The notes beneath the pieces were generated by a model. That model was given only the letters and a program-made list of their open reading frames with translations, had not been told where the DNA came from and searched no databases. DNA of 64,000 bases from the IMG/VR virus record IMGVR_UViG_3300027806_000001, positions 1-64,000 of that record. One strand, written 5' to 3'. The stretch's first letter is position 1. The number at the start of each line of letters is the position of its first letter. This document shows, in pieces, positions 12,955-55,231 of this stretch. This DNA is from a virus. The translations under genes were made by a program, and so were the position numbers.

Positions 12955-13358
12955 GATGGCCCCGCGGCGGCGTCGAGCGCCAGGAAGGAGGCGATGCGGG
13001 TCTCGATGGAGTCGGCGAGGCCGGTGGCCTGGCGCGCGATCGACTTCCTGCGGGCGGTCTCCTCGGCGATCCGGCGGATCCGGGAGGAGTACCTGAAGGC
13101 GGCGTCCCGGTGGATGGCGGCCACGAGGTCGTTCTGCACCTGGTTGCGCATCAGGTCGAAGTCCTTGACGCGGTCCTTGGCGGCCTCCTCCAGGTAGGCC
13201 TGCTCGAGCTCGTTGCGGTCGAAGGCCTCGGCCAGGCCCTGCCGGGTGTTGTCGCCCTCGGTCGGCTCGAACGGGGCGCGGAACACCTTGCCCTCGGACG
13301 AGGAGTCCTTGGCAGCCTTGCGCAGCAGGTCGATGGCCTTGCGGGTCGCCTCGTTCAC
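12951..13358 (-). CDS. hypothetical helical protein, 135 aa (GTG start re-called)
   Basis: GTGA overlap with the sigma stop at 13355-13358; charged helical sequence (V/M)NEATRKAIDLLRK... Confidence 0.6.
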   Translation of the reverse strand: MNEATRKAIDLLRKAAKDSSSEGKVFRAPFEPTEGDNTRQGLAEAFDRNELEQAYLEEAAKDRVKDFDLMRNQVQNDLVAAIHRDAAFRYSSRIRRIAEETARRKSIARQATGLADSIETRIASFLALDAAAGPS

Positions 13359-14107
13359 TGCATGCTCCTGTTGATGGCGGCGTACTCGTCGAGCTTGGCC
13401 GCCAGGCCTGCGGTGAGCTGGCTGACGCGGCCCGGGCTGATCTTGAGCCGGGCGGCGACCTGGGTGTTGCTCAGCAGCGGCTTGCCGTTGTAGCCCAGGC
13501 GGTGGTCGAGGATGACCTGCTCGGTCGGGCTGAGCGACGGGTACATCGTGGCGAGGACGTCCTTGTTGAAGCCGAGGTTCTTGACCGCGGTCATCTCCTG
13601 GGAGCTGGCCGGGGTGTCGCCGCCGGCCACGACCGCGCTCTCGCTGAAGGTGCGCTTGTCCAGGCCGCGGATCTTGCCCAGCTGGCGGACGGACATGCCG
13701 GTCAGGTCGGCCAGCTCCTGCTCCGACGGCGGCCTGCCCTTGTTCTCGTAGAAGTCGGCCTCCTGGCGGCGCAGGGCGCTCAGCTGCTGGTAGACCCGCT
13801 CGGGCATCGGGGACGGCATGATGTCGCGGGCGTACCTGGAGATGGGCTGGAGCTGGGTGTAGACCCAGCTGCGCAGGGCCGAGCCGGAGTCGGGGGAGTA
13901 GTTCTTGATGGCCTTGACGGCCAGGAGCTTGGCCTTGCTGCGGACGGCCGGGCCGGCGTTCATCCCCGAGTAGGCGTAGACCGCCTTGTCCAGGTCCGGC
14001 GACAGGGCGTCCAGCATCTGGTTCATGTACTGCGGATCCTGGGTGCGCGTCCACTGGGCGTGGACGTCGTTCAGGGTGGTCTTCTTGATGGCCGGGGCCG
14101 GGGTCAT
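13355..14107 (-). CDS. phage-encoded sigma-70-family factor (regions 2, 3, 4), 250 aa
   Basis: AVKAIKNYSPDSGSALRSWV (region 2-like), GRPPSEQELADLTGMS (region 3), LSPTEQVILDHRLG...SNTQVAARLKISPGRVSQL (region 4 HTH). Confidence 0.8.
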   Translation of the reverse strand: MTPAPAIKKTTLNDVHAQWTRTQDPQYMNQMLDALSPDLDKAVYAYSGMNAGPAVRSKAKLLAVKAIKNYSPDSGSALRSWVYTQLQPISRYARDIMPSPMPERVYQQLSALRRQEADFYENKGRPPSEQELADLTGMSVRQLGKIRGLDKRTFSESAVVAGGDTPASSQEMTAVKNLGFNKDVLATMYPSLSPTEQVILDHRLGYNGKPLLSNTQVAARLKISPGRVSQLTAGLAAKLDEYAAINRSMQ

Positions 14108-40854: not shown

Positions 40855-41832
40855 TCAGGTGAAGTCGACGCGGGAGAGGGCCGCGACGTTCGCGATGCCG
40901 CCGCCGAGCATCTCGTAGGCGTACCACGAGAGCATCGGACCCTTGCGCTCGACGAACATGGTCGTGTCCTCGAGGAAGTACAGGCGACCGAGGTACTCGG
41001 GCGAGCTGAAGAGGAACATCGTGTTGTCGCGGACGAGGTCGTCCTTGATCGTGGTGATCCAGTTGAGGGCGCACCACTTGTTCGCCTCGCCGGCCCAGCC
41101 GTTGACCATGATGTCCTGCGACATATCGCCGCCGACCTCTTCACGGGTCCACTTCTCGAACTCGAGCGCCGTCTTCTGGTTGACGAGGGCCGTCTGCGGG
41201 CGCAGGCGGGCGTTCGCAGCCATCATGATCTTCTTCGCCTCGACGACGTTCTCACGGGTGAGGCCGCCGGAAAGGGTGCGCCAGAGCTTGATGTTCGAAC
41301 CGTTCGGGCCGAACGGAAGGTCGACGTCCGCGACCATCGTGTCGTTCGAAAGGAGCGAGTTGCAGGTCTGGATGAACTTGCCGTCCTCCTCAGCCTGGAG
41401 GTCCTTCAGCGAGTTGTCGCTGATGACCTGGCGGATGTCGAGGTCGTAGTCATGCAGCTCCGCGACGTCCTTGTTGAACATCGGGGTCGCGATGCGGGCG
41501 AAGGTCACGAGCCAACGCTTGCCGTAGATGTAGGTGCCGGTCGGGAACTCGCCGAACGGGATCGACATCGCGCCAGGCGAATCGGGCTCGAGCTCGATCA
41601 CCTTCGACGGCTTGTCGGTCGAGACCTGCTTGGTGAGGTCGTCGCCGGTGATGGTCTGCGCCGGAAGGATCTTCCGGAGGAAACCCTCTTCGCGGAGACG
41701 CATGCGGATGAAGTCGGAAGTCGCCCGGCTGACCTTGATGGCCGACTCGGGGTTGAATTCCATGTCCTGGATGTGCTGGCGAACGACCTGGTTCGCGCGC
41801 TTCTCCATGTCTGTGAGATGCTCAAGGGCCAT
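40855..41832 (-). CDS. major capsid protein (HK97-type fold expected), 325 aa
   Basis: Order protease-scaffold-decoration-this gene-terminator; IRMRLREEGFLRKILP, RIATPMFNKDVAEL, DLQAEEDGKFI fit a capsid pattern. Confidence 0.75.
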   Translation of the reverse strand: MALEHLTDMEKRANQVVRQHIQDMEFNPESAIKVSRATSDFIRMRLREEGFLRKILPAQTITGDDLTKQVSTDKPSKVIELEPDSPGAMSIPFGEFPTGTYIYGKRWLVTFARIATPMFNKDVAELHDYDLDIRQVISDNSLKDLQAEEDGKFIQTCNSLLSNDTMVADVDLPFGPNGSNIKLWRTLSGGLTRENVVEAKKIMMAANARLRPQTALVNQKTALEFEKWTREEVGGDMSQDIMVNGWAGEANKWCALNWITTIKDDLVRDNTMFLFSSPEYLGRLYFLEDTTMFVERKGPMLSWYAYEMLGGGIANVAALSRVDFT

Positions 41833-42605: not shown

Positions 42606-42986
42606 TCAGCCGAGGAGAGCCTCGCACCACGCGGCCGAGGACTGCTTGTCGCCGGCCGAGGCCGTCTTGCGAGAGGGAAGGGAGCCGGGACCGCCGACCG
42701 AGAGGTTGCGAGCAGAGTTGAGCTCGGCCTGGAGGCTAGCGATCTTGTTGGTGAGCGAGCCGATCGTCTTGATGGCGCCTTCGTCGGTCTGGATGAACGC
42801 CGCGAACTCATCGCAGCGGTTCGGGTCGAGGCCGGCGTGCTTGACGAGCTCCTGGGCGCAGGCAGCCGCCTGCTTGCGAGTCTCGGGCTTCGCCGGCGCC
42901 GAGATGGCGCTGACGACCGAGGGGACGCTTTCCAGGAAAGAAGCGATCTTCTCAATGGTGGAAGCGGGGATCTGGATCTTGGTCAC
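42606..42986 (-). CDS. small scaffold-like head protein, 126 aa
   Basis: Helical; five K-x-A motifs; C-terminal AWCEALLG resembles scaffold capsid-binding tails. Confidence 0.6.
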   Translation of the reverse strand: MTKIQIPASTIEKIASFLESVPSVVSAISAPAKPETRKQAAACAQELVKHAGLDPNRCDEFAAFIQTDEGAIKTIGSLTNKIASLQAELNSARNLSVGGPGSLPSRKTASAGDKQSSAAWCEALLG

Positions 42987-44494
42987 GACTGGATTCCTTT
43001 GTGGATCAGATTGAGTTCGTTGCGGAGCCGGCTGGCCGAGCGAAGGGTCTGGAACTTGGCCCCTGCCCGCTTGACCGCGCCGTCACAGGTCTGGAGGAAC
43101 GCGGCCTGGGCTGCCGAGAGCCTGCTCGGATGCAGCTTGCCGGACGCCAGGAGGCTGGACACCTTGGCGAACGAGCGGACGTCGGAAGCCTTCATGCCCT
43201 CCTGCTGCAGGAGAGCCATGAGAGCGGCCTCCTCCTCAGGGGCGAGGGCAGGAGCGCCCTCAGGGCCCATGCCGGCCATTTCGGCGTCAGGAGCTCCGCC
43301 GCCGGCCGGCATGGCCGCCATGTCGGCAAGCACCTGCTCGGCGTCGTCCGAGGCCTCCTGGCCACCCTCTTCGGGCGACTCGGCGGTCTCTTCGGCGTCT
43401 TCGTCCTCCGAAGGATCCTCGTCTACCGAGTCTTCTTCGGCGCGCTTACGAAAGGTGCCACCCTTACGGGCAGCAGCTCCCTTCTTCTTGAGGGCCTCGT
43501 TCTCGGCCGCGAGCTTGGCGATGAGACGGATGGCCGCCTCCTTCTCGCCTTCGTCGGCCCAGTCCGGAACGCCGTCGCCGTCCGCGTCGGGCTTCTTGTT
43601 GTCGTCCTTCTTCTTGGCCTTCGGCGGCATCGGGGCCGAACCGCCGGCGCCGCACATCTCGGCGAACTTCGGCATGCCCTCGCGCTCGGCGAGGAGGTCG
43701 TAGAGGGCGATCTTGGTGATCGTGTCGTTGAGTTCGGCGCGCTCCGCGGCCTGCTTCTGAGCCTGGATGGCCGGGAGGACGTGCGGAGCCGCGAACTTGT
43801 CCATGACCAGGGTGACGGTCTGAACGAACGACTCCGCGTCGCGCTCGGCCGCCGACTTCATCTCCTCGCGGGTCGCGACGAGCTCGGCAGTGGCCTGGGC
43901 GCGGAGGGCGGCGAGGTGCTCGGCCGCCATCTTGCCCTCTTCCTCGCTCGAGTCGCCCTCAGGGAGACCGCCGCCGTCGCCGCCGCCGGCCTCGTCGTGA
44001 GGAAGCTTGTTCTTGGCCTTCTCGGGAGCCTTGCCCTGGACGTACGAGTCGCCCTCGGCAGCCTGCTTCACGAGGTTGCGAAGCTCCGCGGCGATGCCGC
44101 TGGCCTGCGCGAGGAAGTCCGCCGCGGCCTTGCCGCTCGGATGCGAGGTGCCCGGGTCGTTGTGGTCGGCGAGGTTGTACTTGCGCTCGACCTCCGGAGC
44201 TCCGCCGGTCGGACGCGGATGAAGACCCTTGTTGTTGCCCGGGTCGCTTTCCTGCGTCCCGTTCTGGATCTTCTTCGCGCTGTCGGTGCCCTTCGGATAC
44301 ATCGTCCGGTTGGCCGACGAGTTCTCGTCGTAGCGCGTGCCGGTCGAGACCGACCGGGTCTGGTCGTCGTCGCCCGAGTCGCTGCCACTGGGGTGAGTGG
44401 TCTTGAGGATCTGCTCACCGGGATTCTCAGCCCGCTTCTGGTTCATGCTGCGGAGCTGCTCGACGAGCGCACGGTGTTCGATGCTGGTTGCCAT
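42983..44494 (-). CDS. scaffold/prohead core-like protein, 503 aa
   Basis: Low-complexity charged and helical; follows the protease; 13 K-x-A motifs by hand count. Confidence 0.6.
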   Translation of the reverse strand: MATSIEHRALVEQLRSMNQKRAENPGEQILKTTHPSGSDSGDDDQTRSVSTGTRYDENSSANRTMYPKGTDSAKKIQNGTQESDPGNNKGLHPRPTGGAPEVERKYNLADHNDPGTSHPSGKAAADFLAQASGIAAELRNLVKQAAEGDSYVQGKAPEKAKNKLPHDEAGGGDGGGLPEGDSSEEEGKMAAEHLAALRAQATAELVATREEMKSAAERDAESFVQTVTLVMDKFAAPHVLPAIQAQKQAAERAELNDTITKIALYDLLAEREGMPKFAEMCGAGGSAPMPPKAKKKDDNKKPDADGDGVPDWADEGEKEAAIRLIAKLAAENEALKKKGAAARKGGTFRKRAEEDSVDEDPSEDEDAEETAESPEEGGQEASDDAEQVLADMAAMPAGGGAPDAEMAGMGPEGAPALAPEEEAALMALLQQEGMKASDVRSFAKVSSLLASGKLHPSRLSAAQAAFLQTCDGAVKRAGAKFQTLRSASRLRNELNLIHKGIQS

Positions 44495-44515: not shown

Positions 44516-45868
44516 CTATTGTAGTTGGTTCTGGCATATCCCGCAAAAGATCATCTCGTCCAGGTCCGCGGCCTCGCACGAGGCCTTGATGCTCCTGAAC
44601 GCCTCCAGCTGGTACCGGAAGTACTCCCGGTGCCACCCCGAGTCGACCCCGCAGGCGGTCTTGGTCTGAGCGCCAGGCGCCGTCGCCTGGCCTACGATCC
44701 TGCCCATGATGGGCTGCACGACGCTCCGATAGGGCCTGAGCCTCGAGCAGAGCTCCGCGATCTTACCTGAAACCTTCATTTCCGAGGGCTCGTACAGCGA
44801 GCTGGAGACCAGCTCCTCGGACTGGAAGGCGGCCGAGCCGCGGTCCATGGCGGCCTTGTCGAAGGACGAGGCCTCGCCGGCCGGGATGCGGTTGCCGGTC
44901 ATCAGCAGGTGCAGCTCGGACGGCCGGAGCACGACGCCGTTGTCCGAAAGGCCCCTCATGACGGAGTCCAGGTGGACGGGGACGTAGGACGCCAGCTTGG
45001 CGACCGTGTCCTCGACCTCGTCGCAGGAATCCAGGAGGACCGGCTTGGCGATTCCCTCGATCTTCTTCTCCATGCGGGAGAGCTTCTCGAGGATCCGGCG
45101 CTTCTGCTCGGAGTGCTTGACGTTCGAGACCAGGGTGGCCTCGAGGAAGGGAATCTGGTCCGCCGAGTAGCCCAGCTCCTCGGCCAGGGCGGCTCCGCCG
45201 ATCGGGCCGGCGCTGGCCGTCTTCAGGGTGTAGGCCACACGGTCGGCCGGGCGGACCACCCTGGAGATGTCGAAGAAGGTCGAGTTGGGGTTGTCCACGC
45301 CGACGATCTTGCCGTCGTCCATGATCTTGCCCAGGGCCTCCTTGACGTGCCAGCAGTACTCCCTGGGGGTCTTGGCCTTGTTCTCGCAGATGGAGCAGAC
45401 GTCGTGGGCGATCTTGCAGGCCATGGAGACCGGGTAGCTGCCCTTCCTCTCCAGGAGGGAAAGCTCCTCGGCGCACTTGGTGTTGTCGAGCTCCATGAGC
45501 AGCTCGACCCGGTCCATGTCGTCGTTGTAGAGGGCGGCCTTGACCGTGCCGTAGCTGGGGTCGAGGGAGGTGTTCTTGTGATGCCGGAAGACCTTGGCGT
45601 GGCTGATGAAGGTCGGATGGTCCCTGAGCAGGTTGGCGCGCTTCCAGCCGTCGCCGTTGCGGTTGAAGCCGAAGCGCTCCGAGGCCGTCATGGCAATCGT
45701 GTGCACGGCGGTCTTGTCCCGGCCGGGGGTGTAGCCGTCGATCAGGCGGGAGAACATGTTGGCCCGCTTGACCTGGCCGGAGTCGAGGCCCCGCGAGGAG
45801 AACCTGAGGATCTCCGACTGGGCCTCGTCGCCGAGGTTGAAGTGGTCCGGGCTGAATGCCTTGATCAT
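44516..45868 (-). CDS. prohead (capsid maturation) protease with Zn-finger-like insert, 450 aa
   Basis: VFRHHKN (candidate catalytic His) and YPVSMAC (candidate Ser), then CSIC...CWH; upstream of scaffold and capsid. Confidence 0.7.
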   Translation of the reverse strand: MIKAFSPDHFNLGDEAQSEILRFSSRGLDSGQVKRANMFSRLIDGYTPGRDKTAVHTIAMTASERFGFNRNGDGWKRANLLRDHPTFISHAKVFRHHKNTSLDPSYGTVKAALYNDDMDRVELLMELDNTKCAEELSLLERKGSYPVSMACKIAHDVCSICENKAKTPREYCWHVKEALGKIMDDGKIVGVDNPNSTFFDISRVVRPADRVAYTLKTASAGPIGGAALAEELGYSADQIPFLEATLVSNVKHSEQKRRILEKLSRMEKKIEGIAKPVLLDSCDEVEDTVAKLASYVPVHLDSVMRGLSDNGVVLRPSELHLLMTGNRIPAGEASSFDKAAMDRGSAAFQSEELVSSSLYEPSEMKVSGKIAELCSRLRPYRSVVQPIMGRIVGQATAPGAQTKTACGVDSGWHREYFRYQLEAFRSIKASCEAADLDEMIFCGICQNQLQ

Positions 45869-45877
45869 GGTTGACCT

Positions 45878-46951
45878 CTATCGCCTGATGACGTTGCGGT
45901 TGTCTTGGGTCGCCTCGCCGCCGAGCAAATAACCAGCTCCAAATCCCGCCGCCGGAATCCCGATGTCAATGCCAAAGTTCAAAAGGCGTCCCGCTGTGCC
46001 GCGAGGTATAGCCCGATTGATCCGTCTGGGATCAAGAGCGTAACCACCTGCAGGGTAACCAGGCCTGAATACGCCGGCCCCGCCTGGCGTGGTTACGGAG
46101 ATACGACCGACATCGGGATTGCTCATATCTCGCACGAATCCCTCGGCAGCATCCGGGACCTTTCCTTGAACCAGGTCCTCGCCAATCACGCCTCCACTCT
46201 GGTTCTTGCTCTCCAAGGAGACGCTGCTATCCGCATCAGGGTTGCCCATCAGCCGAAGAGCTGCAACTCGGCCCGCAGGGCCTCTAGCGGAGGGTGGGGC
46301 CGCCGGAATAGGAGCCGCAGCGCCCTCGCCTGCCAGAGCGGCCAGACTTCCCGGCTGAGGCCGTCCGGGCTCACCATAACCATACATCCAGGCATTCTGA
46401 TCGTCGGCAATCGGGATGGGTCCAGCTGGAGATGAAGGCGGTGGAAGAGGAATGGAGTCCGGCGGCAGGACCGGCACCAGCGAAGGAGCCTTGGAAGCCG
46501 AAATGACCGACGGAGCCCGACCTCCGCTGACCGTAGAGTTGGTGGCTTGCGCAATCAGGTTGCTGAGGAGCGAACGCCCGGTCGGAGATCCAGGGATGCG
46601 GCCAGCTGTTTCCGCCGGAGAGGCGGCAGCGACCGGAGGTTGATCCGTGAAAGCCTCCCTTATCGGCTTCCGCGAAAACGAATTCCTACCCAGGGCCCTA
46701 TTCGTACCGACCCGATGAATCTGCTGTCCCAGGGCTCTGCCTAAGCCTGCGCCCCCTAGTCCGAAACCCCACTGCGCCCACGGGTTCTCCGACCCGGGGA
46801 CAGCCTCTTGCGTCACCGCAAACTCGCCAGGTTTTGGATCGGCTCCAACCCGGCCCTGACTCACGGGAATAGTGCGCCGGCCCTCCTGGGCCCGCTTCGT
46901 GCGGGCCTGGGCGTACTTGGCCATGATGTCGGAGATGTCGTGTCGGCTCAT
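45878..46951 (-). CDS. putative internal/ejection protein, 357 aa (start re-called)
   Basis: ATGA overlap at 46948-46951; Pro/Gly/Ala-rich, two Gly-rich hydrophobic segments; atypical codon usage. Confidence 0.6.
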   Translation of the reverse strand: MSRHDISDIMAKYAQARTKRAQEGRRTIPVSQGRVGADPKPGEFAVTQEAVPGSENPWAQWGFGLGGAGLGRALGQQIHRVGTNRALGRNSFSRKPIREAFTDQPPVAAASPAETAGRIPGSPTGRSLLSNLIAQATNSTVSGGRAPSVISASKAPSLVPVLPPDSIPLPPPSSPAGPIPIADDQNAWMYGYGEPGRPQPGSLAALAGEGAAAPIPAAPPSARGPAGRVAALRLMGNPDADSSVSLESKNQSGGVIGEDLVQGKVPDAAEGFVRDMSNPDVGRISVTTPGGAGVFRPGYPAGGYALDPRRINRAIPRGTAGRLLNFGIDIGIPAAGFGAGYLLGGEATQDNRNVIRR

Positions 46952-48237
46952 CGCGGGGACTCCTTGGCTGAATCGAGGCCGGTAAGCTTCGGCACGACCG
47001 AGTACTCCTTGCGCTGGTCGCGGATCCTGTCCTCCATCGTCAGCATCTGGTTCAGGGAGAAGTCGTCGATCTGCTGGCCGGCCTCGAGCCTGCGGCGAAG
47101 CATGGAGCGGAGCAGGGGCTCGTGCTTGGCGGCCTCCGGGGCGATCGAGACGATCTCCTGGAAGGACTGCTCGATGTCGTTCGGATTGCGGCCGGCCACG
47201 ATCGGATCGGTCTTGATCAGCTTGTGCAGCAGGCGGGCCTTGTCTATCCGCTCCAGCTGGTCCTTGAAGTCGGGCTCCATCAGGCTCTCGAGCACGCCCT
47301 TGCGGATCGCGTCGGAGGACGAGCCATGACTGGGAAACGCCGTCTGGATGGCCGAGCTGGCGGCCTCGGGGGCGATCATGTCCTTGATGCCGGACCGCTT
47401 CACGCCGGCCGCCTGGTCCAGCAGCTCCTGCCGCTCGATGCCGTTGACGTAGGCGTCGTGCTCGGCCTGGGCCACCTTGAGGGACAGGTTCCTGCAGTGG
47501 TCGAGGGTGCCGACGATCGCTCCGAGGGAGTTGACCTCCTCGACTCCGACCGAGAAGACTCCCAGGCGGCTCGAGGCCAGCTTGACGCACTCGTCCTCCG
47601 AGATCCCGGTGGCCAGGGCGACCGCGTCCGCGGCCTCCTTGCCGTGGCGTTCCAAGGCCTCGCGGGCCCACTGGGCCTTGCGGGTCCGGGAAACCGACGA
47701 GGTCTTGCTGCGGAAGTCCTCGACGGACTTGGCCAGGCTGGCCAGGGCCGACTCGTGGGCCGACCTGGCCTGCTCGACGGCAAGGCGCTCGGAGCGGTCC
47801 AGCATCGACGCCTGCCGCTGCATCTGGGCGAAGTCGGGCGCCGACGCCTGCTTGGACTGCAGGACGACGTCCTCGTTCCAGTTCGGATCCTCGAGGTAGC
47901 TGCCGAGCTCGACGGCCGACGCCAGCGGGTCCGACGCGACCTTGGACGGCAGGCTGACCGAATCGACCACCCTGCGCACCGCCTCCTGGGCGTCGATGAG
48001 CGGGAAGGAGTTGCCCCTCGAGTCCGTCGACGCGTGCTTGAAGTGGGCCAGGTGCGCCGCGCCGTTGTACGACTCGGCGGCCCGGAGGATGTACTCGGCC
48101 GGGTATTCGCCGTCGGATGCGGCCTTGACCAGGGCGTCCGTGGGGGCCACGCCCTGGTTGACCAGGGAGGCGGTCTTGCGGACCAGGCCCATGAGGCGCT
48201 CCTTGTTTGCCGAGGAGATGTGCTTCAGGTCGCTCAT
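46948..48237 (-). CDS. helical head-module protein, 429 aa
   Basis: Eight K-x-A motifs, six of them K-x-A-S; own -10 motif. Confidence 0.7.
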   Translation of the reverse strand: MSDLKHISSANKERLMGLVRKTASLVNQGVAPTDALVKAASDGEYPAEYILRAAESYNGAAHLAHFKHASTDSRGNSFPLIDAQEAVRRVVDSVSLPSKVASDPLASAVELGSYLEDPNWNEDVVLQSKQASAPDFAQMQRQASMLDRSERLAVEQARSAHESALASLAKSVEDFRSKTSSVSRTRKAQWAREALERHGKEAADAVALATGISEDECVKLASSRLGVFSVGVEEVNSLGAIVGTLDHCRNLSLKVAQAEHDAYVNGIERQELLDQAAGVKRSGIKDMIAPEAASSAIQTAFPSHGSSSDAIRKGVLESLMEPDFKDQLERIDKARLLHKLIKTDPIVAGRNPNDIEQSFQEIVSIAPEAAKHEPLLRSMLRRRLEAGQQIDDFSLNQMLTMEDRIRDQRKEYSVVPKLTGLDSAKESPR

Positions 48238-49127
48238 TGGCCGTCCATTTTACCTTTGTGCTGGTTTTCCACGAACCGGGGCGGGTTGTCCCCATACAGG
48301 GCAAGCATCTTGGCGTCGTCGGTGCCGGCCCGGAGCGGATCGGCCGGCATGGAGTTCTGGGTCATCAGGCCGTAGGTGAACGACTTGAGCATCACCGACA
48401 CGACCTGGGAGGCGAAGCCGTCCTCCTCCTTCTGGGGACCGGCCAGGGCCTCGATCTTCTTGCGCTCGTTGATGTTGTCCTTGGCCAGGCCGATCAGCTC
48501 GACCGCGTTGCGGGCGTTCGGCGTGACGCCGTTGGCCGCCTGGATGCCCTTGGAGAGGACCAGGTTGTTGAACACGGTCTCGAACATGGACTGCAGCTGG
48601 TGCTCCGAGCAGCGCTCGAGGGCCTCCAGCATCTTCCGGCCGCCGAAGACTGCCATGCGCTTCCACATCGCCTCCGTGCTGAACGGAGCGGACCTCAGGG
48701 TGGGCTCGATGACCCACCGGTTGATGTAGCCGTGGTTGCCCAAGTTGTCCTGGACGTCGAAGAAGCACTTCACGTACTGCTCGATGACCTCGGCCCTGTG
48801 GCCGACCACCGACGCCACCTCGGAGTAGGAGTAGCCGGCCAGGATCCGGGTGTCGACGTCGGTCCGGTAGGCCGGCCCGTGCTCGAACATCATCATGGCG
48901 TCGGCGACGTCCGGGTGCTCGTCCTTGTAGGCCTCGACCTCGTCGACGGGGGCCTGCCGGATCTTCTTCATCAGGTCGAACAGCCCGCGGACGTAGGAGT
49001 CGTCCTCCTTGCGGGGCTCGCGCCACTCGTCCAGGAGCTTGGAGACGTAGACATACCGCCAGTCGGGGCTCTTCAGCCTGCGCGGGGCGGGAGTCTTGTC
49101 GGAAAGCGGGACCTTGGCCTTGCGCAT
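48234..49127 (-). CDS. hypothetical protein with HTH-like segment, 297 aa
   Basis: TRILAGYSYSEVASVVGHRAEVIEQY resembles an HTH; coupled to both neighbours. Confidence 0.6.
   Translation of the reverse strand: MRKAKVPLSDKTPAPRRLKSPDWRYVYVSKLLDEWREPRKEDDSYVRGLFDLMKKIRQAPVDEVEAYKDEHPDVADAMMMFEHGPAYRTDVDTRILAGYSYSEVASVVGHRAEVIEQYVKCFFDVQDNLGNHGYINRWVIEPTLRSAPFSTEAMWKRMAVFGGRKMLEALERCSEHQLQSMFETVFNNLVLSKGIQAANGVTPNARNAVELIGLAKDNINERKKIEALAGPQKEEDGFASQVVSVMLKSFTYGLMTQNSMPADPLRAGTDDAKMLALYGDNPPRFVENQHKGKMDGQ
48247..48254 (-). promoter_or_regulatory. -10-like GGTAAAAT
   Basis: 9 nt before the ATG at 48237. Confidence 0.45.
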
Positions 49128-51307
49128 CAGAACATTTGGTTGAGGTCGGTCTCGACCGCCGAGCCAGCGTCGGACTGGATCTTGCGTTCCTTGAACTTCA
49201 GGATGAGCTCCCCGAGGCTGAGGAAGACGGTGCGGACCGACTCCTCCATGCTGGGCAGGTCTTCCTGGCTGAACCTCTCGGCGAACTTGTCGCCGTGGAA
49301 CAGGATAAGGAAGTAGATCCGGCCGAGGCGGTCGAGGGAGGTCGTGAGGTCCGCCATGTACTGGTCGAGCGGGGTGTCGATGTCCGTCCGGCTGATCAGC
49401 TCGGAGATGTTGGCGACGTCGAACACGTCGCGGTCGCCCGACTGGGCGGCCTGCATGATCGAGTCGACCGACTCCTGGGGCAGGGCCGGCTGCGTCTGGG
49501 CCATGCCGCTCAGGCTGTTCATGATCATCTGGTTCTGGATGTTGCCCGGCTGGCCCGTCGAGGCGCTCATGGTCTGCGCCTGCGGGTACTGCTCCGGCAC
49601 GCCCAGGACGGGGTTCATGCCCATCGGGACCGGCGGGATGTCAGGAGTGGCGACCATGCCGGGGGCGAAGAACGGCTGGGCGCGCTTCTCGTAGCGGGCG
49701 ACCGGCGCCTCCTTGGCGGCGGCCTTGGTCAGCAGCCCGCGGGCGTCCTCGCTCGAGAGGCCGACGTCGCGCACCAGAGCCACGTAGGCCTGCTTCCTGG
49801 GCAGCTGGCTGAAGGCCACCTTGCCGTTCAGCACGGCGGTGAAGCCCAGGGGGTCCGAGGCCATCTTGACCTCGTCGTAGCTGTGAAGGATCTTGTGGTC
49901 GATGTCGCGGGCGGTGCCCAGGCGAAGCTCCGGATCGCCGTAGTCGTGCTTGTAGCTCTTGGCCTTGGCGGTCTCCGGGACGTAGAGGACCCGGTCGACG
50001 ATCTTGATCCGGCGGTGGGCCGGAGAGACGACGACCTCCTCGATGTCGAGGTCCCAGCAGCCATCGGCCTTGTAGGTCTTCGAGCCGCCGGAGCTGACGC
50101 CGGGACTAAGCTTGATGGGACCGATGGCCTGGCTGCCGTCGGCCTCGATGAAGATCGTCCGCTTGGTCTTGGAGTCGGAGGGGTAGGGGTAGCTGGCGTT
50201 GACCTGAGCCTCGCCGGCCGGCTTGAGTCCGTTCAGGAACTTCTGGAAGGCGTCCTTGTCGCCCAAGGTGCCGAGCGTGAACATCTCGGTGCTGGGCGCC
50301 TTGACCGGAGCCTTGGAACCCTCGAGCGGGAAGAAGAACTGGACGGTCGACTGCGGGGTGCTGCCGAAGTTGGGTCCGTGGCCCAGGCTGGAGTCGGTGC
50401 CGGGGGTCTTGCACAGGCGCATGCACTGGATGACGGCGCCCTTCATCAGGTCGCCGCCGCGGACGAGCACGTCGTAGACGCCTGCGCAGTCGCAGACGTT
50501 GAAGGCCATGGGGGCCTGCATCTTGTACGGGATGCGTGGGCCGTTGTCGCGGTTGTCGCGGACGACCACGCCCTCGAAGAGCAGGTCCTTCTTCTGGGAC
50601 TCGGTCAGGGTGTCGAGCACGTCCTGCTCGCAGCAGGCGTCGATGACCTCGACGTCGACCTTCTTCTCGGTGTCGAGGAGGATGTTCTCGGCCTCCTTGC
50701 AGCCGTCGAGGGCCTCGTACAGCCCCGGGCCATACATGTCGGAGGCCAGCTTGTGCAGCTCGGGATGCGCCATCAGGGTGCCGATGTAGGCCTGGGAGAA
50801 CCGGCAGTCGGCCTGCTTGATGAACGACAGGAAGGAGAGCGGCGGGAAGTCCGGCATCTCCATCATCCGGTCCATGCCCAGCTTGGTGTTCATCGTGGGG
50901 TTGTAGATCTTGTTCAGATCCGCCCCGCCCTGCATGTTGGTGAACAGCTGGCCCCGGGTCAGCTCGGACGGGACGCCGAGCTCGGCCGGGTTCGTGTTCA
51001 GCAGGCTGTCGACCCAGTTCTCCTTGTTGGGGACGAACAGGTCCTGGTCCTGGTTGTAGAGCAGCTCGGCGCCCTTGAGCTCGCCGTTCTTGTAGAACAC
51101 CGGCACGTAGAGGGACCTGCCGTTGACGTCGAAGCGGAAGAGGCCGACGGCCTGGGTGCCGTCGTCGTTCTTGTTGACGACCTCGAAGCCCAGCATGTAG
51201 TCCATCAGGTTGGGGATCTTGTCCCTGATGTACGCGAAGGCGAGCTGGAAAAAGTTCTGCTCGAACGTGGCGTCATCAGCCAACTTGATGGAGGTCTTTC
51301 GGGGCAT
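49127..51307 (-). CDS. large head-module protein of unknown function, 726 aa (start re-called)
   Basis: AGGA SD before the ATG at 51307; multi-domain; about 14 K-x-A motifs. Confidence 0.7.
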   Translation of the reverse strand: MPRKTSIKLADDATFEQNFFQLAFAYIRDKIPNLMDYMLGFEVVNKNDDGTQAVGLFRFDVNGRSLYVPVFYKNGELKGAELLYNQDQDLFVPNKENWVDSLLNTNPAELGVPSELTRGQLFTNMQGGADLNKIYNPTMNTKLGMDRMMEMPDFPPLSFLSFIKQADCRFSQAYIGTLMAHPELHKLASDMYGPGLYEALDGCKEAENILLDTEKKVDVEVIDACCEQDVLDTLTESQKKDLLFEGVVVRDNRDNGPRIPYKMQAPMAFNVCDCAGVYDVLVRGGDLMKGAVIQCMRLCKTPGTDSSLGHGPNFGSTPQSTVQFFFPLEGSKAPVKAPSTEMFTLGTLGDKDAFQKFLNGLKPAGEAQVNASYPYPSDSKTKRTIFIEADGSQAIGPIKLSPGVSSGGSKTYKADGCWDLDIEEVVVSPAHRRIKIVDRVLYVPETAKAKSYKHDYGDPELRLGTARDIDHKILHSYDEVKMASDPLGFTAVLNGKVAFSQLPRKQAYVALVRDVGLSSEDARGLLTKAAAKEAPVARYEKRAQPFFAPGMVATPDIPPVPMGMNPVLGVPEQYPQAQTMSASTGQPGNIQNQMIMNSLSGMAQTQPALPQESVDSIMQAAQSGDRDVFDVANISELISRTDIDTPLDQYMADLTTSLDRLGRIYFLILFHGDKFAERFSQEDLPSMEESVRTVFLSLGELILKFKERKIQSDAGSAVETDLNQMF

Positions 51308-51327
51308 CGTGGGTTCCTGGCGGGAAA

Positions 51328-51357
51328 CCCCCGGGCCGGCTTTCGCCGGCACGGGGG
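51328..51357 (-). terminator. terminator-like hairpin
   Basis: CCCCCG-U-GCCGGC-GAAA-GCCGGC-C-CGGGGG then UUUCC; 13 nt after the stop at 51371. Confidence 0.55.
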
Positions 51358-51370
51358 AGGAGAGAAGGGA

Positions 51371-52567
51371 TCAGACCGAGAAGCGGGCGACCGCGAACGT
51401 CACGCGGGCCGCGGAGAGGGGGCCGCCGCCGGCCAAGGTGGCACTCAGACGGCCGCCGGGGAGGATGTCGCACGGATGCATCACATCGATCGAGCGGATG
51501 CGGCCCGAGGTGATCGCCGCGGCGTAGATCGGAGTGCCGACGGCGCCCGAGGTCGTGCCGAGGGTGACCGTCGGCGCAGTCAGGTAGCCGCAGCCCTGGC
51601 TGGCAAGGTTGATCTTCACCGGGGTGATGCGGGTCGAGCCCGAGACGACGTCGGTCGAGAACGTGCCGGTGACCGTGGCGGTCGGCGAGGTGAGGCCGGA
51701 GGCATCGCCGAAGGCTGCGTTCGGAGCAATGACGGTCACGACCGCGCTGGAGGCCGACTGAGCGCCGCCGGTGCCAGCAAGGGCGGCCGCCTGCGTCAGG
51801 TGGATGGTGAAGGTGGTGTTGGCGCCGCTGCGGGTGATGTTGCCAAGGAAGACCACGGTCGTACCCGACGTCACGCCGGTGATCGTACCGGTCGTGTAGG
51901 TCAGGATCACCGCGTCGCCGTTAACGAACGGAAGCGGATCGGTGACGGTGACGACACCCGGGGTCGCATTGGTGACCGCGTAGGTCTTGCCGGTGATGTT
52001 GGCAGGGGCCGAAAGCGTAACCGAGCCGCTCTGGGTGGCGAAGTACGCGGCGGACGGCAGCAGGCCGCTGAGATCCGTCTGCTCGGTTCCGGTGATGATG
52101 CCGTTGGCCGCCGAAATGACGTCCGTGGCGGTGTTCAGAATCGACGAGCCGAGGGTGTTGGCCGCGGCAATGCGGTTCTGAACCTGAAGCGACGCGCGGG
52201 CATCGGCTGGAGTCGGACCGGTGACGTTGAGGTTCTCAGGCTGGTCGACGAAGACGCCGACGAGACGACCCGGGTAAAGGAAGTCGTTCGTGTTCCACGC
52301 AGTGCCCTGGACGACGCGGTTCGAGATGAATTCGATGCCGAAGTTGCCGTACTTCAGGTCGCTGTTGGCGATGTCCCGGAGAATGGCTGCGCGGGTAAGG
52401 AGACCCTGCGGGTGGACGAAGGTGTCCTGGAACGTGGTGCACTCCTTCGGGCCGAGCGTGCGGCCGTTAGGGCCGACGTAGCCGAAGAAGCGCGTCGCGC
52501 CCTCGTTCTTGTAGGAGTGGGTGGCGAGGAGCAGCGAACGGTAGTAGGGCAGTGCGTTGAGTGACAT
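51371..52567 (-). CDS. Thr-rich virion surface protein, 398 aa
   Basis: AVTNATPGVVTVT...FVNGDAVIL and GRIRSIDV modules typical of phage structural proteins; followed by a hairpin. Confidence 0.55.
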   Translation of the reverse strand: MSLNALPYYRSLLLATHSYKNEGATRFFGYVGPNGRTLGPKECTTFQDTFVHPQGLLTRAAILRDIANSDLKYGNFGIEFISNRVVQGTAWNTNDFLYPGRLVGVFVDQPENLNVTGPTPADARASLQVQNRIAAANTLGSSILNTATDVISAANGIITGTEQTDLSGLLPSAAYFATQSGSVTLSAPANITGKTYAVTNATPGVVTVTDPLPFVNGDAVILTYTTGTITGVTSGTTVVFLGNITRSGANTTFTIHLTQAAALAGTGGAQSASSAVVTVIAPNAAFGDASGLTSPTATVTGTFSTDVVSGSTRITPVKINLASQGCGYLTAPTVTLGTTSGAVGTPIYAAAITSGRIRSIDVMHPCDILPGGRLSATLAGGGPLSAARVTFAVARFSV

Positions 52568-52618: not shown

Positions 52619-53332
52619 TCAGCCCAGGACGTTCTGTGCGGAGGTTCGGGCCGAGTCCGGCAGGTAGCCGAGGCCCTTGTCGATCATGTTCTTGCCGCCC
52701 TCGGTGCCGTAGGCTCCGCGGAGGCCTGCGCCGGCCAGGCCGCCGACGCCGCCGCCGATCAGGGCGCCCTTGAGGGCCGTCATGAGGTAGCTGGGAAGAT
52801 CCGAGTCCTCCTCATCCTGGGAGAACAGGGCGCGGGCCAGGAGGGCGATCGGAATGCCCGCGAGGGCGCCTGCGCCGGCGCCGTAGCCGATGGACTGGCC
52901 GTAGGAGCCGGTGTTTCCGGTCCAGGGCTCCCCGCCTTCGCGCAAGCCTGCTCCGGTCATTGCCGCCGAGTCGGTCATGGAGCTGGAAACCGAAGGATTG
53001 TTCCTGGTGTCGGTTTCTCGGGCTTTCAAGCGAGCACCGGCGTTGTCGGCGTTGACTCGGGCCTGTGCGGCTTCCAAGTTAGCCCGGTTGACTCTCTCCC
53101 GGGACGAGGTGTTTCGAATGTTTTCGACGTCGTCGTAGCTGCGGTCTGCAGGCGTACCAAGCATCCCCTGGAGCTGCTTTTGCAACTGTGCTGCCTCGCG
53201 CGCCTTCTGGTAGTCCTGTCGGGTACCAATAGGCGCCATACCGGGAGGGAGCGTCTGTGCGATCTTGACCAGGAGGGCCGGCTTGCGGGCCTCTGCGGCC
53301 TTGCTGAGCTGGAGGATGGTTTCACGGAGCAT
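52619..53332 (-). CDS. putative internal/ejection protein with glycine-zipper segments, 237 aa
   Basis: GYGAGAGALAGIPIALLA and GALIGGGVGGLAGAGL; N-terminal K-x-A motifs. Confidence 0.6.
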   Translation of the reverse strand: MLRETILQLSKAAEARKPALLVKIAQTLPPGMAPIGTRQDYQKAREAAQLQKQLQGMLGTPADRSYDDVENIRNTSSRERVNRANLEAAQARVNADNAGARLKARETDTRNNPSVSSSMTDSAAMTGAGLREGGEPWTGNTGSYGQSIGYGAGAGALAGIPIALLARALFSQDEEDSDLPSYLMTALKGALIGGGVGGLAGAGLRGAYGTEGGKNMIDKGLGYLPDSARTSAQNVLG

Positions 53333-53371: not shown

Positions 53372-55231
53372 TCAATAGGTGCCCTTCGGTCCCTTAGAGA
53401 TCTCGCCCGAGGCGAGGGCCGGGATCCACGACGTGCCGTGCAGCTGGGACGTCGAGCCCCGCTGGACGTTCTCGAGGAAGGTCTTCTTGAGGTTGAAACC
53501 TCCGAGCTGCACCATCCAGTCGCGGTCGCCCACCAGGGACTCCATCGCCCTGGTCATGGTCGGCTTGAACGGCGGCGGGTTCGGATGGGCGATCACCTCG
53601 TTGAAGCCGCTGTCCTTGAGTTCCTTGACGACCGACGGCGTGAGCCTGGTGCCGATCGAGTAGTGCATGACAGGCTTCTCCAGGTACTGGCCCTGGAACT
53701 TGCCGGGCTCGCCCACCTGGAATCCCTTGCGTGGCTCGTACTTGGCCGCCACGTAGTCGTAGCTGACGATGTCCTCGGGGTAGGCCCCTGGGATGGCGTC
53801 GGGCTCGGTGACCTCGACCTGGTTGATCAGGCCGCGGGCCACGACCTCGACGTTCCGCCGGTGGACCGGCAGGCCGTTCTCCTGGAGGGCGGACTTGAAC
53901 TGCTGGACGAACCGGCGCCGGGCCTCGCCGATGCCCTTGAGGTCGGCGATGTCCTTGGGGTTGATGACGCCGTCGGACAGGGCGTCGCCCGCCTCCAGGG
54001 TCTGGCCGGGCTTGACCGTGACGGCCTGCTCGGCCGGCACGTAGTAGCGCTCGTTGTTGACGTAGACGTAGTTGCCGCCCTGGGGAGCCGGCTCGATCTT
54101 GCCGACCGATCCGTCCACCTTGGACACGGGGGCGCCGTCGGTGAAGGTCTTGGGAACCTCGACCAGCTGGTTCAGGTACGCGAAGCCGGTGACGGTCCGC
54201 TTGGCCTTGCCCTTGGCGACGCCGCCTCCGTGCTTCGAGTTGAGCATGCCCTGGCTTACAGGTTCGGCGATGGCCTGCGCCGCGGTGATGCCGACGTTCA
54301 TGCCGGTCTCGGCCAGCTTGCCGTGCTCCCGTATGCCAGCGGCGATCCTGGGCAGGCCTCCCATGGCGCTTACCGCGGCGATCGGGGAGTAGACGAAGGC
54401 GCGCTTGACGCCCTTGGCGTTTAGCGCCTTGAGGACCTTGGAGTCGATGTAGGTGCCGCGCTTGAACTCGCCTTCGTCCCGGGCCAGCACCGAGCCGATG
54501 CTGTCAGGGTCGTCGGTCTCGACCATCAGGCCCTGGCCGTCCGGAATGTCCTCGTCGGTGGCCACCAGGCGGTGCGCGGCGGCGGTGAGGCGCTTGGCGA
54601 AGTAGCCCGCCTCGCCGACCGCCAGCTTGACGTCGATCGAGCCGGCCCGGGCGCCGTAGGATCCAGCCCAGTACTCGACCGGGTCCACGCCCTCGGCGTA
54701 GGAGTTGAGCACGGGAATCGGCACCGGCCGGCCCTTGTTGTCCGAGTAGAGCAGGTCCGTGCCGATCATGGACGCCAGCTGGTTCTTGTTGCCGCGGGCG
54801 CCCGCGAAGACCTGCATGGCGAATGGGTTGTCGTTCTTGAGCGCCTCCTGGTAGACGCCGTCGACCAGGTCGCCCTGGTACTTCAGGGCTGCATCGACGA
54901 TGCGTTCGTTCCGGATCTTCGGGTTCTGCTCGGAGCGGACGATCGCCCGGACCTCCTTGCGGAGCTCGTCGGCCAGCTTCTGCTTGATCTTCGGCGGCTT
55001 CAGGTCCTCGAGCGTGAAGCTGGACCTGGTGGACTGCCGGGCGCTCTTGAGGCCGGTCAGGGTCAGGCGATGGATCATCTCCCGGTACTCGTCCGGGTTC
55101 ATCTTCTGCGCCATGTCCGTGAGGAACTTGCGCATGGACGACTTGTCCCAGACGCGCTCGTAGTCGCGGTGCTCCTCCGGCAGCACGGAGTTGATCACGA
55201 GCTGCCCGACGGTGGTCAGCTTCGGTTCCAT
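53372..55231 (-). CDS. rpoC: RNA polymerase beta-prime subunit, C-terminal half only (split subunit), 619 aa
   Basis: Colinear beta-prime motifs: TTVG; AGARGNKNQL; NSYAEGVDPVEYWAGSYGARAG...AGYFAKRL (bridge helix); VGITAAQAIAEPVSQ...H (trigger helices); RRNVEVVAR; C-terminal clamp. No NADFDGD. Confidence 0.9.
   Translation of the reverse strand: MEPKLTTVGQLVINSVLPEEHRDYERVWDKSSMRKFLTDMAQKMNPDEYREMIHRLTLTGLKSARQSTRSSFTLEDLKPPKIKQKLADELRKEVRAIVRSEQNPKIRNERIVDAALKYQGDLVDGVYQEALKNDNPFAMQVFAGARGNKNQLASMIGTDLLYSDNKGRPVPIPVLNSYAEGVDPVEYWAGSYGARAGSIDVKLAVGEAGYFAKRLTAAAHRLVATDEDIPDGQGLMVETDDPDSIGSVLARDEGEFKRGTYIDSKVLKALNAKGVKRAFVYSPIAAVSAMGGLPRIAAGIREHGKLAETGMNVGITAAQAIAEPVSQGMLNSKHGGGVAKGKAKRTVTGFAYLNQLVEVPKTFTDGAPVSKVDGSVGKIEPAPQGGNYVYVNNERYYVPAEQAVTVKPGQTLEAGDALSDGVINPKDIADLKGIGEARRRFVQQFKSALQENGLPVHRRNVEVVARGLINQVEVTEPDAIPGAYPEDIVSYDYVAAKYEPRKGFQVGEPGKFQGQYLEKPVMHYSIGTRLTPSVVKELKDSGFNEVIAHPNPPPFKPTMTRAMESLVGDRDWMVQLGGFNLKKTFLENVQRGSTSQLHGTSWIPALASGEISKGPKGTY

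Follow-up and report, generated by a model that had tools for sequence, protein, structure and literature searches.

How does a phage come to carry, among the genes for its head, a gene for the rear half of the RNA polymerase (RNAP) β′ subunit, and with what partner could such a protein work? The question is raised by a 64,000-nucleotide stretch of viral DNA (hereafter the window), positions 1-64000 of the IMG/VR record IMGVR_UViG_3300027806_000001; window and genome numbering are identical. The genome, 183,468 bp long, is rated complete and has direct terminal repeats. The window has 66% G+C and its genes lie almost all on the minus strand. A reading of the letters alone (the sequence-only reading) had assigned an open reading frame (ORF) of 619 amino acids (aa) at 53372..55231 to the C-terminal half of β′. 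This ORF proved real and lies on the minus strand, with an ATG start; the plus-strand frame of the same interval is not open. The gene, P0001, overlaps the stop of its upstream gene by 16 nt, and its codon-position GC pattern (0.94 G+C at third positions, GC3) is that of a normal expressed gene of the same genome.

In Pfam, P0001 matched RNA_pol_Rpb1_5 at E 6e-21, and its 75.5 bits (69.8 when the genome was searched) lie well above the cut-off of 28.5. Searching the Protein Data Bank (PDB) with phmmer returned bacterial β′ chains at E 1e-31 to 2e-35: residues 6-484 aligned with M. smegmatis β′ 665-1181, and residue 6 was paired with position 570 in a β′ chain of 1417 aa that is numbered much as in E. 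coli. We also built an AlphaFold2 (AF2) model from an alignment of 15 homologues (mean predicted local distance difference test, pLDDT, 77). Foldseek matched the model to T. thermophilus β′ at E 5e-30 over about 620 columns, thus P0001 is colinear with β′ through its C-terminus. The PDB alignments and Foldseek therefore agree with the proposed colinearity from a TTVG motif (about E. coli residue 570) to the C-terminus. Confidence in the model was low for the middle of the bridge helix, the tip of the trigger loop and the last 40 residues, all of them parts that in bacterial RNAP lie against other subunits or nucleic acid. Judged by these alignments, P0001 is the rear half of β′, comprising the bridge helix, the trigger loop, the jaw and C-terminal clamp elements. 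As the sequence-only reading had stated, P0001 lacks the catalytic NADFDGD motif and is the sole core subunit in the window, the profiles Rpb1_2 and Rpb2_6 matching only at 91.9-94.4 kb, outside it.

The same reading, which placed P0001 in a phage multisubunit RNAP, had named beforehand the lack of any complementary subunit in the genome as the finding that would count against it, and had proposed a whole-genome profile search for the DFDGD-bearing half and for fragments of β. We ran Pfam profiles over the whole genome, then read and annotated the ORF that they identified. Both parts were found, the DFDGD-bearing part together with all of β, in one ORF. The NADFDGD domain matched once genome-wide, at 91.9-92.4 kb, inside a 2040-codon open frame. 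The product of this frame, P0002 (2034 aa; genome 91779-97883, minus strand, outside the window), is β fused to the N-terminal part of β′ (β′-N), with the Pfam domains Rpb2_3, Rpb2_6 (9e-43), Intein_splicing, LAGLIDADG_3, Rpb1_1 and Rpb1_2. NADFDGD lies at aa 1941, and P0002 stops about 90 residues past the catalytic loop. The β module is interrupted by a 407-aa intein with a LAGLIDADG endonuclease (aa 762-1168, genome 94380-95600, minus strand), which starts with Cys1, ends in His-Asn with Thr as the next residue, and is inserted just ahead of Rpb2 domain 6. The genes for P0001 and P0002 are 36 kb apart.

The two chains fit each other exactly. The TTVG motif that marks the fission point (55205..55216, minus strand) occupies residues 6-9 of P0001, five residues after the start, and 18 of 18 family members tested begin no more than 8 residues from it. 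Moreover, the metagenomic protein P0235 (2033 aa), a single-chain relative, aligns over residues 1-1462 with P0002 to its end and over residues 1466-2029 with P0001 6-617. P0235 spans both chains with nothing missing or duplicated, thus P0001 and P0002 are complementary pieces of one β-β′ polypeptide. We consider it quite likely, and the best explanation of the data as a whole, that together they make up the complete bacterial-type catalytic core of a two-polypeptide phage RNAP.

What else does the genome supply to such an enzyme? Rpb1_2, Rpb1_5 and Rpb2_6 matched once each, and phmmer searches of all six frames detected no RNAP paralogue in the genome: it encodes one RNAP set only. In a search for alpha (PF01193) and omega (PF01192), 14 of 14 control genomes were positive, but neither subunit was detected in this genome at E<=1. 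A candidate sigma-70-like factor of 250 aa is encoded at 13355..14107 (minus strand); it matched Pfam Sigma70_r3 at 25.9 bits (cut-off 25.3), has a C-terminal helix-turn-helix (HTH) and a weak region 2 match, and no PDB entry was matched. By BLASTP, it is similar to gp10, the sigma factor of Salmonella phage Arash (E 3e-11).

The closest cultured relatives are Arash itself and Vibrio phage D69. A search of a phage collection gave 34 records at E<=1e-5, 30 of them listed; the full-length cultured matches among those listed were Arash gp216 (26% identity) and proteins of Vibrio phages D69, D148 and D181 (28%). In Arash (OQ632216; gp206, 1525 aa; gp216, 606 aa) and in the Vibrio phages, the RNAP has the same two-chain layout and the same split site, and both chains align end to end with P0002 and P0001. 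The order of the portal, protease-like and capsid genes is also shared, as is a homologous sigma-like gene. The systems differ in several respects: identity is 26-28%; the RNAP genes lie about 0.6-5 kb apart in Arash and D69 but 36 kb apart here; the large chain carries an intein only here; a four-Cys zinc site is kept in Arash and D69 but lost here; and the helicase gene that follows the β′-C gene in Arash does not do so in this genome. The Arash paper labels the chains β and β′ with no remark on fusion and split (PMC10585845), and both chains are annotated hypothetical in the D69 record. In the same clade, single-chain phage RNAPs (P0235-P0240, about 2000-2125 aa, on metagenomic contigs of 26-140 kb, 27-31% identity) have the same junction between β and β′ and are colinear over P0002 and P0001, but their β′ is unsplit.

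The RNAPs of phiKZ/AR9-type jumbo phages, which the sequence-only reading had in mind, are also multisubunit enzymes that lack alpha and omega and have a β′ split after the catalytic barrel. They have β in 2-3 pieces, two paralogous sets and no sigma factor, they are highly divergent from the cellular enzymes, and one set is packaged (PMC7598289, PMC7824862). The present enzyme is not of this type: β is intact and fused, the genome encodes a single set, and it also has a sigma-like gene. Of the 34 phage records at E<=1e-5, the 30 listed included none of phiKZ/AR9 type, nor did the organism tally. The suggested closeness to the bacterial enzyme was borne out: P0001 stands much nearer to it than phiKZ-type subunits do, with E values down to 1e-35 against bacterial β′. 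On these comparisons, we assign P0001 to the Arash-type two-chain lineage and not to the phiKZ type. To this known lineage it adds a β′-C that is Cys-free and devoid of the zinc site, and widely separated RNAP genes. The mReC phages (Weinheimer and Aylward 2020, PMC7481178) resemble the present one in being uncultured and tailed, with β and β′ alignable to cellular enzymes. Most of those listed have separate β (about 1000-1380 aa) and β′ (about 900-1010 aa), often in two sets; entries of 1563+1038, 1425+1036 and 1487+1303 aa could, from their lengths, share the layout described here, and that paper makes no mention of fusion or split in its phages (PMC7481178). We found no description of the fused-and-split layout in the literature searched, jumbo-phage overviews included.

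We examined the elements on which catalysis by P0001 would depend. Both the bridge helix and the trigger helices, claimed from the sequence, were found. The bridge helix region (54575..54682, minus strand; residues ~184-219 by alignment to the bacterial bridge helix) is modelled by AF2 as helices spanning 184-197 and 205-219, and Y192, G193, R195 and G197 are invariant over the 15 family members scored (43-82% identity). The trigger loop and helices (54158..54295, minus strand; residues ~313-358 by alignment) have E323, Q327 and H334 invariant in the same set; the tip (333-346) is of low pLDDT, and neither the alignments nor the AF2 model contain an SI3-type insert. His334 is thus kept, but P0001 has Leu330/Asn331 in place of the bacterial Met/Arg, a pair that the single-chain relatives retain.

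The β′ structural zinc site, which four Cys form between the bridge helix and the trigger loop, is gone. The region where it would lie (54347..54553, minus strand) has I227, A284, P292 and A295 at the four Cys-ligand columns and, since P0001 contains no cysteine at all, the site has been lost. All four columns hold Cys throughout the bacterial rows (5 of 5), as they do in Arash, D69, Rhizobium phage TM30, Ralstonia phage RP13 and 5 family members. The four-Cys site is absent from P0001 and its subclade and was lost more than once in the family: in addition to the P0001 subclade, P0120 lacks it, although its sister P0091 keeps it, and the single-chain P0235-P0237 lack it as well. The β′-N part of P0002 is also Cys-free and, read directly, the place of the N-terminal zinc ribbon is taken by only nine residues.

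The position of the break invites comparison with cyanobacteria and plastids, in which β′ is divided between RpoC1 (gamma) and RpoC2. The best PDB match to the β′-N part of P0002 was indeed cyanobacterial gamma (3e-50): the C-terminal part of P0002 aligned with residues 187-550 of 624, nine P0002 residues lying beyond the alignment, and cyanobacterial RpoC2 residues 7-13 corresponded to P0001 residue 27. Cyanobacterial gamma extends about 65 residues beyond the end of P0002 and includes the TTVG region. TTVG is a gamma motif in cyanobacteria but is carried by the C-terminal chain in this phage, thus the phage break falls about 14-20 residues earlier. The sequence-only reading was therefore right that the break points differ, by this offset and with TTVG in the opposite piece. 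By alignment, the phage break nevertheless falls in the same hinge, after the NADFDGD barrel, as the cyanobacterial and plastid one, and the phiKZ-type split of β′ coincides with the cyanobacterial one according to a review (PMC7598289). P0001 is not an RpoC2, since TTVG stands at residues 6-9 and the SI3 insert of RpoC2 is missing; moreover, gamma is not fused to β in the cyanobacterial/plastid system. Searching the PDB with the first 63 residues of the C-terminal chain alone, to place the gamma C-terminus, returned only noise (calmodulin, E>0.1).

P0001 belongs to a large family: scoring of candidates at E<=1e-10 yielded at least 420 homologues. Of these, 120 were listed (>=43% identity); most stand alone, measure about 611-621 aa and come from contigs of up to ~200 kb. 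Longer relatives of β′-C have inteins or low-complexity C-terminal extensions of 500-700 aa. These extensions are coiled-coil-like and occur in P0122, P0123, P0129 and about 100 others; in one case, P0202, β′-C is fused to an SNF2 helicase and a NUDIX domain. Single-chain β-β′ proteins form six clusters of about 2000 aa. The fused-and-split layout is common to many, mostly uncultured, phages and to the cultured Arash. Fifteen related loci were found in bins of metagenome-assembled genomes (MAGs) from many phyla, on phage-sized contigs of 115-226 kb; elsewhere these bins contain full-length rpoC genes of the usual kind. The bin labels of the lineage's phage contigs include Gemmataceae, Dependentiae, Sediminibacterium, Aquaspirillum, Planctomycetia and others; the binning is probably contamination, and these labels are unusable as evidence of the host.

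A tree was computed with IQ-TREE (LG+C20, 33 rows, 615 columns), rooted on four bacterial β′ sequences. Single-chain and split forms grouped together (support 100/100). Within this group, the split forms made up a clade (95/89) in which Arash and D69 are sister to the P0001 family, and the P0001 family alone was fully supported (100/100), on a long branch apart from the bacterial sequences. The single-chain forms were unresolved at the base and did not form a clade (55/52). Together with the identical split site, the tree favours one fission of a single-chain ancestor; we hold, if loosely, that the split may have arisen once in this way from a single β-β′ chain.

How might such an enzyme operate? 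After splicing of the intein, P0002 would supply both catalytic double-psi barrels. The fusion of β to β′-N may replace the alpha dimer as assembly platform, as neither alpha nor omega is encoded, and the sigma-like protein encoded at 13355-14107 would provide promoter recognition. Because of the virion proteome of Arash, we propose that the enzyme could be produced late, along with the head proteins, and then be packaged and injected, so that early genes would be transcribed without the host polymerase. Mass spectrometry of Arash virions detected gp206 more than any other protein (3516 spectra) and gp216 with 1210 spectra, against 1333 for the capsid protein, and the sigma factor gp10 was covered at 100% (PMC10585845). 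By analogy to this abundance of both chains and the sigma factor, and from the position of the genes, packaging in the virions of the present phage seems somewhat more likely than not.

The main competitor to packaging is a real two-chain phage RNAP that stays out of the virion and serves middle or late transcription only, like the non-virion RNAP of phiKZ, while the host polymerase, perhaps redirected by the sigma-like protein, reads the early genes. A sigma-70-like factor might work just as well with the core enzyme of the host. Moreover, the genome has one RNAP set, whereas a further set, for the later genes, is present in those phages in which packaging of a multisubunit RNAP is known (PMC7598289). 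Ribonucleotide reductases, RNA ligases and a helicase were likewise detected in the virion preparation of Arash, and its authors note possible carry-over of proteins abundant during infection (PMC10585845). However, the large chain of Arash was detected above all other proteins, and its β′-C was on par with the capsid protein. Both RNAP genes also lie within the structural gene array in three distant phages. This position fits late expression, a timing ill suited to an enzyme whose work would be confined to the infection cycle in which it is made. We regard an unpackaged enzyme as unlikely, if well worth keeping in view. Two further explanations would deny P0001 a role in a phage polymerase altogether. 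It is the only core fragment within the window, as might be expected of a stand-alone β′ fragment acting as decoy or modulator of the host polymerase, or of a decaying relic of a captured rpoC; but an exactly complementary partner is encoded in the same genome, the catalytic elements do not vary in a family with hundreds of members, and codon-position GC is normal for an expressed gene of this genome (GC3 0.94), which leaves that explanation very improbable. The many stand-alone homologues of similar length and the conservation of catalytic elements across a large family argue for a functional gene and not a relic. Host contamination or a recent horizontal capture, by which P0001 would be a cellular rpoC fragment, could be suspected from the related contigs filed in MAG bins of many bacterial phyla. 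Those contigs are phage-sized, however, and the bins have their ordinary full-length rpoC elsewhere; in the tree the family stands apart from the bacterial sequences, on a long branch with full support, and phage structural genes and direct terminal repeats are both present in the genome. The chance of a cellular origin of this kind is close to negligible.

The proposal of a packaged two-chain RNAP also has several points to contend with. With the zinc site lost and Leu/Asn in the trigger loop, the catalytic properties of P0001 may differ from those of the bacterial enzyme. A distance of 36 kb separates the RNAP genes, the first of which lies 25 kb from the portal gene, whereas the arrangement in Arash and D69 is compact. 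The sigma-like candidate is marginal, 0.6 bits above the Pfam cut-off and with no match in the PDB. The direction of the fission comes from a tree with only 4 bacterial outgroups and one candidate phyla radiation (CPR) sequence, in which the single-chain grouping is supported at only 55/52. The Arash preparation gave 116 of 252 proteins, ribonucleotide reductases among them, a sign that non-structural proteins of high abundance came along with the virions, as its authors also allow (PMC10585845). P0001 is only 26% identical to Arash gp216. More generally, activity, assembly and packaging in this phage are deduced by homology.

With the packaged enzyme as starting point, a broader proposition may be put forward tentatively, at somewhat less than an even chance. 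The only transcriptase of a widespread tailed-phage clade could be a minimal two-chain RNAP of bacterial type, devoid of alpha and omega (and zinc-free in this subclade), that uses a sigma-like factor, is packed into the capsid as a holoenzyme, is injected and works independently of the host polymerase throughout the infection, having arisen from a single-chain ancestor by one fission at the hinge also used by cyanobacteria, plastids and phiKZ. Multisubunit RNAPs of phages are known mainly from the highly diverged and fragmented phiKZ/AR9 enzymes, whereas the present lineage aligns readily to bacterial RNAP. It has neither alpha nor omega (nor, in the subclade of P0001, either zinc site), having β joined to β′-N instead, and would offer a natural minimal core for asking about the roles of the assembly platform and of the zinc sites. 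It is also a third independent case of β′ breaking at this hinge, besides cyanobacteria/plastids and the phiKZ type. The single-chain relatives in the same clade make the direction of change testable, and the cultured members Arash (Salmonella) and D69 (Vibrio) make packaging and host independence directly testable.

The surroundings of P0001 were interpreted mainly by synteny with Arash, by which its neighbours are head-module genes. Around it we recognized, all on the minus strand, the portal gene (genome 122529-124451); downstream of P0001, a head-module gene homologous to that of Arash gp218, which mass spectrometry places in the Arash virion (49127..51352; tblastn 1e-10, C-terminal part only); a prohead-protease-like gene homologous to Arash gp222 (44516..45868; tblastn 1e-35, with a weak PHROG match to a head maturation protease, 1.7e-5); and the gene for the major capsid protein, homologous to Arash gp226 (40855..41832; tblastn 2e-31, 30% identity). 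The minus-strand order is colinear with Arash and D69: portal, β fused to β′-N, β′-C, gp218-like, protease-like and major capsid protein. As in Arash-type phages, the P0001 gene precedes the head genes and shares their strand, and close relatives (94% identity) keep the same immediate neighbours. No terminator-like site was found on the coding strand between 50.5 and 61.5 kb. A scan around the P0001 gene detected no sigma-70-type promoter, a null that is uninformative because the phage has its own polymerase. The neighbouring ORFs between 46.9 and 60.7 kb gave no usable Pfam or PHROG match, only a weak XYPPX repeat (Pfam) in one of them. The ORFs at 52619-53332 and 51371-52567 were considered as split-off extensions of β′-C and rejected, BLASTP returning nothing better than E>1. 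An SNF2 helicase gene follows the RNAP gene directly in Arash and on the P0235 contig and has no clear counterpart in this genome; an SF2-like ORF at 82915-84864 was rejected for this role, with a sub-threshold ResIII match and no BLAST similarity to the helicases of Arash, the P0235 contig or P0202.

The sequence-only reading had also counted six K-x-A sites in P0001. The count was right, but it carries no signal (4.1 expected, Poisson p 0.24); one of the sites lies inside the bridge helix, and we discarded K-x-A as a cleavage or packaging code for P0001. Enrichment was found in other products: 15 sites against 3.6 expected in that of 49127-51352 (minus strand, p 5e-6), 12 against 2.6 in that of 44516-45868 (minus strand, p 2e-5), 14 against 6.2 in that of 42983-44494 and 8 against 3.1 in that of 46948-48237 (both minus strand), and 14 against 4.6 in that of genome 177946-179334. 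In the head-module proteins, this enrichment is compatible with K-x-A being a site of the prohead protease.

Inserted elements are not confined to P0002. P0003 (1000 aa), which is 100% identical to P0001 over the matched 54%, carries a LAGLIDADG insert, and many more distant relatives of β′-C have Hint or LAGLIDADG inserts; the presence of inteins is thus polymorphic in the family. The large terminase of this genome (171241-174339, plus strand) measures 1032 aa against 532 aa in Arash and, from a LAGLIDADG_3 match at residues 378-438, before the ATPase domain, probably contains a second intein or a homing-endonuclease insert. Lastly, the 965-aa family A DNA polymerase (genome 152709-155606, minus strand) has an N-terminal domain of the uracil-DNA-glycosylase superfamily.

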